From contig JBDRCX010000006.1 in the NCBI GenBank assembly GCA_043821365.1, positions 672,001 to 736,000 of the forward strand: a stretch of 64,000 bases of DNA, in the 5' to 3' direction. Numbering within the stretch: the stretch's first letter is position 1; each line of letters begins with the position of its first letter. The translations under genes and the position numbers were made by a program. This DNA is from Candidatus Micrarchaeota archaeon. Its GTDB lineage: Archaea > Micrarchaeota > Micrarchaeia > Anstonellales > Bilamarchaeaceae. Shown piece by piece: positions 1,622 to 46,020 of this stretch. A model generated the notes under the pieces. The model had not been told where the DNA came from. It was given only the letters and a program-made list of their open reading frames with translations, and ran no database searches.

Positions 1622-4547
1622 ATGGGATTTGGAAAAAATATCAAAAAACCCAATTTCAAAAAAATAAGCGATTACATCTGGGAAATTGGAACCGATTATA
1701 AAGAAGGAATGAAAGTTCCAGCCAGGATATATGCTAGTAAAAATATCCTTGATCAGATGGACATGAACGTCTATGATCAGGTTACAAATGTTGCAACTTT
1801 ACCAGGTATTGTGAACTACGCCTATTGCATGCCCGACGGCCACATTTCTTTTGATTAAAAAGAAAGGCAAATCCGGGTATGGATTTCCAATAGGTGGAGT
1901 TGCTGCCATGGACATTAATGAAAATGGAGTAATTTCACCAGGTGGTATTGGATTCGACATTAATTGTGTCCATCCAGATACTAAAATACTTGCAGAATAT
2001 GGCTATTATAAAAAAATAAAGGATTTTCAAGATGATTTCTCTGAGGAAAGATTATCCTGTATGGATTTGGCAGATAATAAAAAGAAATCTGCAAATCCCA
2101 TACTAACTCTATGCAAAAAAGCAGATTCGCCAGTATTATCTATAAGAACAAAAACTGGTCAAGAAATACTAGTTTCTGCAGATCATCCCTTACTTTCGGA
2201 TAATGGTTTTAAGGAGGCCGGAGATCTAAAAGAAGGTGATAGTTTGCTTATCCATCCCTTTGTTGGTATTGAATATGAGGTTCCAAAAGATTATACAATA
2301 CTAGATGAAAAAGATGTAATCAATCTGGTCGGTAATAGAAAAAAATTAATTGCCAAACTAAAAGCAGAAGGTCTACTACCGCTAAAATCAAATTCAAAAA
2401 ATCTTCCAATTCTTGCAAAATTAGTTGGTTTTATAACTGGAGATGGGTGGGTAGGTTCTTATTATTCTAAAAAAAGAGCAATGGATATCTGGTCAACCAG
2501 AATAATCGGCAAACAGGAGGATTTGGAAAAAATACGGGAGGATCTTTTACAATTGGGGTACGAAACCAATTTTATCCGAACAAACAAATACTCCAGCAAA
2601 GTGAATCTCGAAGATGGAACTGATCGGGCAATAACAGGCGAATCAACACAATTGTATCTTAATTCTCAATCATTAAGTGTACTTCTTCATTTACTCGGAG
2701 TGCCTAAAGGTAATAAATCTAGAACTAAAACATCAATACCAAAATGGGTTAAACATGCACCATTATGGATAAAACGTTTATATCTGGCAGGATTATTTGG
2801 TGCCGAACTTAGTAAACCAGCTCAAAGAAAAAATGAAGAATTCAGCTTCATAGAGCCTAACTTTAGCCAAAATAAGATTGATAGTTTAAAACAGGACAAT
2901 CTTAATTTTATGTTAGATCTAACCAATCTGCTTCTGGATTTTGGGGTGAGAGTGAATAAGATATATGAACAGAAAGGAGTTGTGAATGTTAGGGGTGAGA
3001 GGACCCATAAGCTTGCATTAAGAATTTCTGCCAAACCTGAAAATCTTATTCGATTGTGGGGTACCATAGGTTATGAATATTGCCACGAAAGAACTGTGTG
3101 TTCAATGCTTGCTATTTCTTATTTGAACTATAAGGTTGCTGTTTTAGAAAAAACGGATGTAGAAAATGAGCAATCATCGGGAGCACAAAAAACAATTTCC
3201 CGAATTCGGATTGGTTCGTCATTTCCAACTTTCAAAGAATTTATCGAACAACATATTGTAAAAAATTCCGTATTCATAAAAGATGAAATATCAGACATCA
3301 AATTTTCAAATTATGGTGGATATGTTTACGACTTTACTATGAATGACAAAAACCATAATTTTATTGCAAATAATATCGTGTCTCATAATTGTGGAATGCG
3401 TATCATCCGTACAAACTTAACCTACAAGGATGTCCAGCCAAAATTAAGAGAACTAATTGATAAATTATTCAGAAGTGTACCAGCCGGAGTTGGAAGCAAA
3501 GGGTTTGTGAAATTAGATGCATCAACATTCAGAAAAGTAATTGAAGAAGGATCAGAATGGTGTATAGACCAAGGATATGGTTGGAAAGAAGATTTGGAAG
3601 TAACTGAATTAGGCGGTAGAGAAAAAGATGCAGATAATAGAACTGTAAGCGATAAAGCAGTTCAAAGGGGAAAAGACCAAATCGGTACATTGGGAAGCGG
3701 AAATCATTATCTAGAAATCCAAAGAGTTCTAGAAGAAAACATTATCGACAAGCAATTAGCTAAAAAGTGGGGTATTTTCCCAGATCAGATAGTTGTTATG
3801 TTCCACTGTGGAAGCAGAGGATTTGGTCATCAAGTTGCAACAGATTATCTTAATCTATTCCTAGATGTGATGAATTCAAAATATAAAATAAAAATATTAG
3901 ATAGAGAACTTGCATGTGCACCATTTAATTCTCCAGAAGGTCAGAATTATTTCTCTGGAATGAAATGTGCTATGAATATGAGTTTTGCCAACAGACAAAC
4001 AATTCTACATCAAGTAAGAAAGGTTTTTTCAGATGTATTTGCAACTGATGCTGAAAAACTTGGTTTGCATCAAATATACGACGTTTCACATAATCGCGCG
4101 TCAATTGAAAAACATGATGTTGACGGAACTATGAAAGAATTAATTGTACACAGAAAAGGTGCAACTGCGGCTTTTGGACCAAATAGGCCAGAAGTAACAG
4201 CAAAATACAGAGAGGATGGTCAGCCAGTTATTATTGGCGGTAGTATGGAAACTGGTTCATATTTGCTTGTTGGTGCAGAAACAGGTGCACAAACATGGTT
4301 TACAACTGCTCATGGCTCAGGAAGAACAATGAGCAGAACAGAAGCAAAAAGAAGGTATAGGGGAGACCAATTGCAAAAAGACATGGAACAACATGGTATT
4401 CTAGTGAAAACAAATTCACTGGCAGGACTTGCTGAAGAAGCAGGAGCTGCATACAAAGATATAGATGAAGTTATTGAATCTGCTCATTCTGCAGGTATCT
4501 CTAAAAAAGTTGTTAAGTTAATTCCAATAGCTAACGTGAAGGGCTAA
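1622..4547 (+). CDS. rtcB: RNA-splicing ligase RtcB; proposed join(1622-1843,1872-4547), 965-aa precursor, 490 aa after intein removal
   Basis: 78-aa ORF ends in MPDGH; next frame continues SGYGFPIGGVAA...GFDINC. After the intein: GSGNHYLE, FHCGSRG, VSHN, HRKGAT, AHGSGR, EEAGAAYKD, all RtcB catalytic motifs. Confidence 0.92.
1844..1871 (+). other. Candidate 28-nt BHB-type intron in rtcB mRNA
   Basis: Removal gives in-frame CAC|TCC (His-Ser). Intron stem 1845-1852/1858-1865, central helix GGCC/GGCA, bulges AC|A and AA|U, exon stem 1829-1835/1874-1880. Confidence 0.75.
1965..3389 (+). mobile_element. Intein (475 aa) with LAGLIDADG domain in RtcB
   Basis: Begins CVHPDTKI after GFDIN; block B ILVSADHPLL; LAGLIDADG-like LVGFITGDG and LAGLFGAE; ends VYDFTM...NFIANNIVSHN followed by Cys+1. 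Confidence 0.95.
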
Positions 4548-24755: not shown

Positions 24756-24868
24756 GGCCACGATAGTATAATGCCTTGAACGGCATTCAAGATTTGCCTG
24801 CAAGGCATGCAATGGTAGTATAGGGGCTTGTGGAGCCCTAGGCCCGAGTTCGATTCTCGGTCGTGGCC
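24756..24868 (+). tRNA. tRNA-His(GTG) with encoded G-1 and a 41-nt intron (24772-24812) at 15/16
   Basis: G GCCACGA TA GTAT AA|TGGTA GTAT A GGGGC TT GTG GA GCCCT AGGC CCGAG TTCGATT CTCGG TCGTGGC C; BHB helix GUAU/AUGC, bulges AA|U and AA|U, intron stem GCCUUG/CAAGGC. Confidence 0.95.
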
Positions 24869-24952
24869 CTCTTCTTTTTTTGGAAAAAAGAACCAAAAAA
24901 CGTTTTTGTTAAAGGTAAAGCCAAAAACTGGTTGTTAAAAAGAAGCCAAAAA

Positions 24953-45433: not shown

Positions 45434-45596
45434 ATTTTCATCCTCCTGTTGTCCTTTTTAGAAAAAGGACCAAAAATCTGGTTTTGTTAAGTTTTCCTCT
45501 TCGAGGAAAAATGATTTAACTAAAATCCATCGGATTTTTCATCAACCAGTTTTTTATGTCACTTTTTTCCAAAAAAGTGACTGGGGCCGCTGAGAT

Positions 45597-45634
45597 ATGC
45601 TCCTCCCAACCGCAGGAATTTGTAGTTGAGAAGT
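45597..45634 (-). other. tRNA intron at 58/59 (38 nt)
   Basis: Helix GUUC/GAGC, bulges AA|A and AU|A, stem CUUCUCAAC/GUUGGGAG. Confidence 0.8.
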
Positions 45635-45639
45635 TTGAA

Positions 45640-45783
45640 TTTCTTGCGCTTTTTGGTAAAAAGCGCCCAAAAACTTAACTTGCTAATTTTTGCTCGCAAA
45701 GCTCGCAAAAATAGTGTTGCCACCAAAAACCCGATAGGGTTTTTCAACAAAGAATTTTGGAGCGCCTTTTTTCAAAAGGCGCA
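45640..45783 (-). other. tRNA intron at 53/54 (144 nt)
   Basis: Relaxed BHB: helix UCUG/AAGA (one G.A mismatch), bulges AG|U and AA|U, stem GCGC/GCGC. Confidence 0.78.
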
Positions 45784-46020
45784 CTCAGATAACAAGCACC
45801 CCAAGCTTGCAGGATACCAGGTTACCTCACGGCCCCAAAGAGGGGACGGTTTTGAACTTAAAGTTCAAATCAACTGCCCCTAAACTTCTAGACATTTGGT
45901 GTGGAAGGTTTTAATATCTATTTTAAACTCGAATGCCAATCTATTTAAATGTTAAAATGTATATTTTATTCTAAGAAATTTGTTTTAAACACAAGTTTCT
46001 AACCCACATATGGGGGTATT

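Follow-up and report, generated by a model that had tools for sequence, protein, structure and literature searches.

How can a tRNA be put together when its T-loop is interrupted by two introns that leave a separate exon of only five nucleotides, and are the two introns removed in a particular order? These questions are raised by a proline tRNA gene of a Candidatus Micrarchaeota archaeon. We analyzed the gene within a 64,000-nt stretch of contig JBDRCX010000006.1 (the window), together with the orthologous loci of related genomes and with contigs assembled from metagenome and metatranscriptome reads.

Gene structure and splice motifs

The gene is interrupted at two sites in the T-loop (Table 1). 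The 5' halves of the acceptor stem and of the T-stem (CUGAG) belong to exon 1, as do the D-arm, the GGG-bearing anticodon arm and a variable loop of 4 nt. Exon 3 provides the last two T-loop bases (AU), the 3' halves of the T-stem (CUCAG) and of the acceptor stem (CGGCCCC), and the discriminator base A; CCA is not encoded. In the 187 nt that separate these two exons the sequence TTCAA occurs once. When joined, the exons give 73 nt, and ARAGORN folds these into a perfect cloverleaf tRNA-Pro(GGG) (73 nt plus CCA). The coordinates, the junctions, the two intron lengths and the 5-nt exon proposed in the initial annotation proved to be exact. The unspliced DNA of the locus gave no tRNA call, either by ARAGORN with or without its intron mode or by Rfam. 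The top Rfam match at the locus, rli49, lies below the threshold (E 0.039) and was dismissed as a chance match.

Table 1. Features of the tRNA-Pro(GGG) locus, with positions in the window (↓ marks the cut within a bulge)
Feature	Position	Strand	Description
TATA-like box CTTTAAGTT	45855..45863	-	putative promoter, about 19-27 nt upstream of the mature 5' end
tRNA-Pro(GGG) gene	45582..45836	-	
Exon 1	45784..45836	-	53 nt; tRNA positions 1-53
BHB1 central helix, 5' strand U48 C49 U50 G51	45786..45789	-	followed by the 5' bulge A52, G53 and the first intron base
Intron 1	45640..45783	-	144 nt, at 53/54
BHB1 central helix, 3' strand AAGA	45642..45645	-	followed by the bulge AA↓U54
Micro-exon UUCAA (DNA TTCAA)	45635..45639	-	tRNA positions 54-58, T-loop
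Intron 2	45597..45634	-	38-nt hairpin at 58/59; conserved apical part; stem is the intron-side helix of BHB2
BHB2 central helix, 3' strand GAGC	45599..45602	-	pairs with G53 (45784) and U54-C56 (45639-45637); followed by the bulge AU↓A59
Exon 3	45582..45596	-	tRNA positions 59-73
Hairpin GTCACTTTTTT-GG-AAAAAAGTGAC and T6 tract	45558..45581	-	directly 3' of the gene; putative terminator

Many orthologs carry TATAAAAA or TTTTAAAAA at an upstream distance comparable to that of the TATA-like box, and in most of them a T4-T7 tract follows right after the discriminator base.

The standard geometry of an archaeal BHB is a 4-bp central helix between two 3-nt bulges, with the cut after the second bulge base. 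Both junction pairs of the gene have BHB geometry. In BHB1, which surrounds intron 1, the central helix UCUG/AAGA has three pairs plus a G.A, and the bulges are AG↓U and AA↓U. Its intron-side helix GCGC/GCGC, formed by the start of intron 1 and a segment near the intron's 3' end, extends further, and its exon-side helix is weak. In BHB2, which surrounds intron 2, the central helix GUUC/GAGC has four pairs and includes G53 from exon 1, and the bulges are AA↓A and AU↓A. The intron-side helix has five pairs, and the exon-side (outer) helix consists of A52-U60 and G51-C61.

Alternative junctions were considered at both sites. The letters permit intron 1 to be placed at 54/55, but this was ruled out because the central helix is then broken. 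By the letters alone intron 2 is ambiguous between 58/59 and 59/60, since an A follows on both sides; at 59/60, however, UUCA/AGCA gives only 2/4 pairs, against 4/4 at 58/59. In most orthologs 58/59 is the sole possible reading because their intron 2 begins with C or T.

Conservation among relatives and the splicing machinery

We searched 60 related genomes and extracted the corresponding loci, and an ortholog was present in 33 of the 36 genomes sampled from the same genus. With the present genome counted, both introns occur in 29 of the 34 genomes of the genus. Intron 2 alone is present in four (G006, G022, G030 and G033), with exon 1 continuing directly into TTCAA, and intron 1 alone in one (G021), with TTCGAAU contiguous with exon 3. 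The four species that lack intron 1 share a TT/TC 3' bulge and may form one clade. These loss counts (four genomes without intron 1, one without intron 2) were left out of any inference on splicing order. Some congeners have a third intron, either at 37/38 (G009, G030 and G033) or in the D-loop (G003); G009 thereby has three introns, at 37/38, 53/54 and 58/59, and G003 combines the D-loop intron with both T-loop introns. At the small end of the size range, G008 carries mini-versions of both introns, 28 and 14 nt long.

Outside the genus, within the same order, only intron 1 is found in G044, G049, G055 and G059, and only a T-loop intron at or adjoining the site of intron 2 in G037, G058 and G060; in G060 this is a single intron of 10 nt. 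Two members of the order (G041 and G052) are intron-free. Their genes read GAGUUCAAAUCUCGG, with TTCAAAT uninterrupted, are recognized as tRNA by Rfam RF00005 with 53.6 and 59.6 bits, and have the same type of T-arm. Further tRNA-Pro-like matches occurred in five Micrarchaeota genomes, among them Ca. Fermentimicrarchaeum. The genus offers a dense natural series for studying gain and loss of archaeal tRNA introns, with intron sizes from 14 to 144 nt and a span that covers both introns, either, neither, and a third one in the D-loop or at 37/38.

Twenty-six two-intron genes were parsed by script and served for quantitative comparison. The micro-exon is TTCAA in all 26. Intron 1 differs widely in sequence among these genes and measures 36-144 nt, and intron 2 measures 36-41 nt. 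Across more than 30 species the exons are nearly invariant while the introns diverge; for exon 1 the identity is 89-100% across more than 30 congeneric genomes. For the central helix, 4/4 pairs are present in 24 of the 26 orthologs in BHB1, and in 25 in BHB2 in its spliced context.

The helices inside the introns are retained as well. Twenty-five copies of intron 2, each of 37 nt, could be aligned without gaps (alignment A1), and in this alignment both partners have changed in eight of the ten stem pairs. This stem has a covariation score of 0.484, compared with 0.263 ± 0.019 after shuffling, and none of 500 shuffles reached 0.484; sliding the pairing partners lowered the score to 0.07-0.19. 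The intron-side helix of intron 1 has from 2 to 12 paired bases built from differing sequences (GCGC.., AAAC.., GAGC.., AAGC..). Because TTC[AG]A stands at a BHB-consistent site in every ortholog and is contiguous in the relatives that lack an intron, the structure is not a product of chance. Conservation of exons and splice geometry, combined with intron sequence that varies freely, argues from the sequences that the tRNA-Pro(GGG) gene is real and under selection.

The imperfect central helix of BHB1 is less informative. AAGA, with its G.A defect, occurs in two of the 26 genes, those of this genome and of G012, and the other 24 have CAGA, CAGG or CGGA and form four pairs. The initial annotation had taken the G.A as a sign that the local EndA tolerates such a defect. 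The three pairs plus G.A are indeed present here, but a defect confined to 2/26 genes says little about enzyme tolerance, and the G.A pair is a local blemish rather than a property of the system.

The host genome (1.2 Mb, 36% G+C, 87% complete) encodes an EndA of 393 aa of the epsilon2 type (L047:1207-2388, minus strand), with a full-length match to the ARMAN-2 enzyme (PDB 4fz2, E 3.5e-132). Its nearest relatives among the 80 loci listed belong to Candidatus Micrarchaeota, Micrarchaeia, Bilamarchaeaceae, many of them from groundwater; ARMAN-2 itself is absent among these 80 EndA-matching loci. RtcB (470 bits) and archease (122 bits) are both encoded inside the window. Judged by its genes, the organism would possess both an endonuclease capable of cutting non-canonical introns and an RNA ligase. 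A second EndA-like protein, of 163 aa, is encoded at L048:1291-1782 (G000:C6, about 480404-480895) and matches the alpha4 endonuclease of M. jannaschii (E 2.4e-9) and the structural subunit of N. equitans (E 3.9e-4). The RtcB match itself (window 1872-4544, plus strand) is in two pieces, covering profile positions 23-50 and 45-426, which lie about 1.4 kb apart in one 910-aa frame; this layout suggests an in-frame insertion such as an intein.

The interrupted gene is the only one with a GGG anticodon that was found in the genome, and the other tRNA-Pro gene is an uninterrupted one with a UGG anticodon. In the long open frames, CCU and CCC together account for 29% of the proline codons, and under ordinary archaeal rules their decoding would need the GGG anticodon. 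ARAGORN also reported a 'tRNA-Pro(tgg) with intron' at G000:C6:368881-369095, which we rejected as its sequence is not that of a proline tRNA gene. Rfam yields only 23 tRNA matches in the genome, a low number that would fit a genome in which interruptions at unusual positions are common in tRNA genes. The present gene is missed by standard finders, and with so few matches such genomes appear short of essential tRNAs. Another interrupted gene was read by eye in the window: a tRNA-His(GUG) at 24757-24870 (plus strand) with a D-loop intron of about 39 nt, for which Rfam gave a partial match at 24807-24860.

DNA contigs covering the locus were obtained from three metagenomes, and the runs that contain the locus are groundwater and biofilm metagenomes. 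No spliced junction was seen in the contigs from reads at the locus. One metatranscriptome contained 1/20 of the words sampled from a 5-kb stretch and yielded one contig on the gene. This contig has four differences from the window, and it is flanked on one side by a D-loop intron and on the other by an intron 1 that matches G003. It is an unspliced molecule of a G003-like relative, either precursor RNA or carried-over DNA.

Order of intron removal

We consider it highly probable that the locus is a working tRNA-Pro(GGG) gene of a DPANN archaeon from groundwater, with a single precursor, from which two BHB introns would be removed stepwise by the epsilon2 EndA, with the exons joined by RtcB and intron 1 the likelier one to leave first. 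Transcription of the gene would give one precursor of about 255 nt. The epsilon2-type endonuclease would excise both non-canonical BHB introns, the 144-nt one at 53/54 and the 38-nt one at 58/59, and RtcB, probably with archease, would join the exons. The introns would be removed singly, with ligation and refolding between the two rounds, the 5-nt exon would stay covalently bound to one of its neighbors, and the T-loop of the mature product would read UUCAAAU.

Two other explanations dispense with this pathway. The locus could be dead, a former tRNA-Pro gene that inserted hairpin repeats have broken up and that no longer functions. The hairpin modules of intron 1 do recur in the genome and in the genus, and standard finders give no call, but the gene is the sole one found with the anticodon that would serve the CCU and CCC codons, its exons have stayed nearly invariant in more than 30 species in which the introns diverged, compensatory changes keep the BHB helices, and promoter-like and terminator-like signals flank it. 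A dead gene is hardly credible on these grounds. The other explanation is split expression, in which transcription ends at an early T5 tract of intron 1 and starts anew within the same intron to give a second RNA, and the two RNAs are spliced in trans after pairing through their GCGC-T5/A5-GCGC arms. T5 tracts can stop transcription in archaea. TTTTT is present in 25 of 26 copies of intron 1, usually 5-10 nt past the 5' splice site and inside a hairpin, and in none of the 26 copies of intron 2, and a similar T-tract stands directly 3' of the gene as its likely terminator. Split and tri-split tRNAs with BHB-like junctions are described for other archaea in work cited in PMC3239211. On the other hand, intron 1 measures only 36-58 nt in most orthologs, which leaves no room for a promoter and a transcribed 3' arm, and no conserved TATA-like box was seen inside intron 1. 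The contig from the RNA library of the G003-like relative also runs from the D-loop intron through exon 1 and into intron 1 beyond the T5 tract, with DNA carry-over as a possible source. We therefore regard split expression as very unlikely.

Returning to stepwise removal from a single precursor, the overlap of the two motifs bears on the order of the steps. In BHB1, G53 lies in a bulge and U54 takes the third place of the 3' bulge; in BHB2 both bases are paired in the helix. Since the motifs share these two bases, BHB1 and BHB2 cannot coexist: one must be cut, and the RNA must refold, before the other can be processed. The pairs A52-U60 and G51-C61 of the outer helix of BHB2 are both present in 26/26 genes after removal of intron 1, versus 4/26 in the unspliced state. 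Of 25 sequences in genomic context, seven have a pair at the G51-C61 position, and four of these seven lack intron 1. When the present gene is unspliced, its BHB2 contains an A.C within the central helix and a single outer pair.

According to the initial annotation, BHB2 is complete only after intron 1 has been cut out and the exons have been ligated, because it needs G53 from exon 1. This is borne out for the present gene, and for the outer helix it holds across the genus, whereas the need for G53 itself applies to just 4 of 26 species. The present one is among these four, with C (of GAGC) as the partner of G53. In the remaining 22 the partner is a U, to which the A or G at the end of intron 1 can pair, and this gives a 4-bp central helix before splicing. 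A full strict BHB2, with four central and two outer pairs, requires exon 1 to be joined in this gene and in 23/26 orthologs. In three species, where intron 1 ends in CAGGAA, the central and the outer helix of BHB2 can both form before splicing.

The relative stability of the motifs was compared with a nearest-neighbor model in which the bulges were forced open and the protein was ignored; the resulting conformer probabilities are small (10^-8 to 0.5), and they were used for comparisons alone. In the full precursor, BHB1 was more probable than BHB2 in all 26 genes. Removal of intron 1 raised the probability of BHB2 in 22 of the 26, about 10^4-fold for the present gene. The modeled probability of BHB1 was about equal with and without intron 2, and in this sense BHB1 is independent of intron 2. 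Given this independence and the far greater modeled stability of BHB1, and since a strict BHB2 needs the joint between exon 1 and the micro-exon, we lean toward removal of intron 1 first as the main path. That this order is strictly obligatory seems doubtful.

The same gene and introns could also be processed with no fixed order, so that either intron leaves first, or intron 2 could even be the first to leave. Here the tail of intron 1 would substitute for exon 1 in BHB2 and the enzyme would tolerate relaxed motifs. The epsilon2 enzyme cuts both strict and relaxed hBH motifs in vitro, where hBHBh' and hBH substrates were tested (PMC3239211), and with such tolerance intron 2 might be cut in the unspliced precursor. 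Alignment column 6 pairs with column 46 in 23 of 25 genomic sequences, and some multi-intron tRNAs of Cyanidioschyzon merolae lose their introns in either order (PMC3728597). With the alternate central helix at 4/4 pairs in 22/26 unspliced orthologs, and the outer helix added in three species, the order is not enforced by sequence throughout the genus. Against free order stand the A.C and the single outer pair of the present gene when unspliced, and the earlier transcription of intron 1. Moreover, BHB1 and an unspliced BHB2 compete for the last two bases of intron 1, and BHB1 is modeled as 10^2 to 10^5 times more probable. Overall, we judge processing without a fixed order to be the less probable course.

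Irrespective of which intron leaves first, a functional argument would favor alternating cuts and ligations, since hardly anything would hold an exon of 5 nt in place once both its ends were free. The strong sensitivity of the pathway to RtcB level that was proposed in the initial annotation is speculative. One may speculate that the overlapping BHBs act as a built-in gate. EndA would then recognize intron 2 only after RtcB had joined the 5-nt exon to exon 1, this short exon would never be released, and maturation of the only tRNA for CCU and CCC would depend strictly on ligase between rounds of cutting. If such a gate exists, it has been kept in about 29 species, which would make the genus a natural system for EndA-RtcB coupling. 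In vitro, the overlapping motifs would also allow two questions to be addressed simply: does an epsilon2 endonuclease require the exon-side helix, and do cuts and ligations have to alternate when an exon is too short for base pairing to hold it?

Published precedents and intron sequences

The layout with two T-loop introns is not new. It is in print for ARMAN-2 (Candidatus Micrarchaeum acidiphilum), and the gene described here is a well-conserved example that adds no new principle. The legend of Fig. 1C in Fujishima et al. (2011, NAR 39:9695, PMC3239211) gives pre-tRNA-Pro(GGG) of ARMAN-2 with introns at 53/54 and 59/60, 'two adjacent positions within the T-loop'. On the basis of that legend, the two genes agree in isoacceptor, phylum, the presence of two BHB introns in the T-loop, the position of the first at 53/54 and an epsilon2 three-unit endonuclease. 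They differ, by the same legend, in the second intron, which lies at 59/60 in ARMAN-2 and leaves a middle exon of 6 nt, and one base away, at 58/59 with a 5-nt exon, in the present gene. At 144 nt, intron 1 of the present gene is also much longer than in the ARMAN-2 gene as depicted, and it is built of hairpin modules. The structural meaning of the one-base difference can be seen in relative G058, whose 59/60-type intron uses the T-stem as the outer helix, with UUCA/UGAA and G53-C61 fitting perfectly; for the 58/59 intron of the present genus the register of the outer helix is shifted by one (A52-U60, G51-C61). The 2025 paper on the structure of ARMAN-2 EndA (PMC12397907) makes no mention of tRNA-Pro(GGG) or of splicing order.

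Related arrangements are known from more distant organisms. Thermoproteales have 'nested' introns, with up to three BHB introns per tRNA gene at sites that include 53/54, 58/59 and 59/60 (Sugahara et al., 2007, 2008, as cited in PMC3728597), and the same source refers to introns that depend on the removal of another intron to form their BHB. The likeness, as far as that source describes it, lies in the multiple non-canonical BHB introns; the Thermoproteales are TACK archaea with an (alpha-beta)2 endonuclease. For nuclear tRNAs of C. merolae the order of intron removal was demonstrated by RT-PCR of intermediates, and the more stable BHB is processed first (Soma et al., 2013, PMC3728597). The modeled stability of BHB1 over BHB2 in all 26 orthologs is in line with that rule. 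C. merolae is a eukaryote, however, and its introns fold independently and without overlap, whereas the motifs described here share G53 and U54.

The introns themselves show several further features. Intron 1 of the present gene consists of four hairpin modules of the form stem-T5-loop-A5-stem. Similar modules recur in the genome at G000:C6:414549-414697, 566953-567070, 209937-209967 and 368920-368948, and at one genomic place the identity is 76% over 150 nt. The modules, which include the segment at window 45645-45675 within intron 1, also occur as exact 30-nt copies in many congeneric genomes, and some copies are situated inside other tRNA genes.

In intron 2, the apical part (window 45611-45624, minus strand) has the sequence ACAAAYACCUGCG (here UACAAAUUCCUGCG; columns 22-34 of A1). 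It is almost invariant in 25 species, and the stem below it changes by compensatory pairs. It has no match to an Rfam family. Its sequence conservation suggests that the loop may have a function of its own, for example as a protein-binding site or in a role of the excised or circular RNA.

A variant of intron 1 was found in the environmental data. At window 45653-45774, a contig from groundwater metagenome X3 has 34 other letters in place of 120 nt of intron 1, and these 34 letters correspond to the short intron 1 found in relative G015. The same samples thus harbor a close relative whose intron 1 is different.
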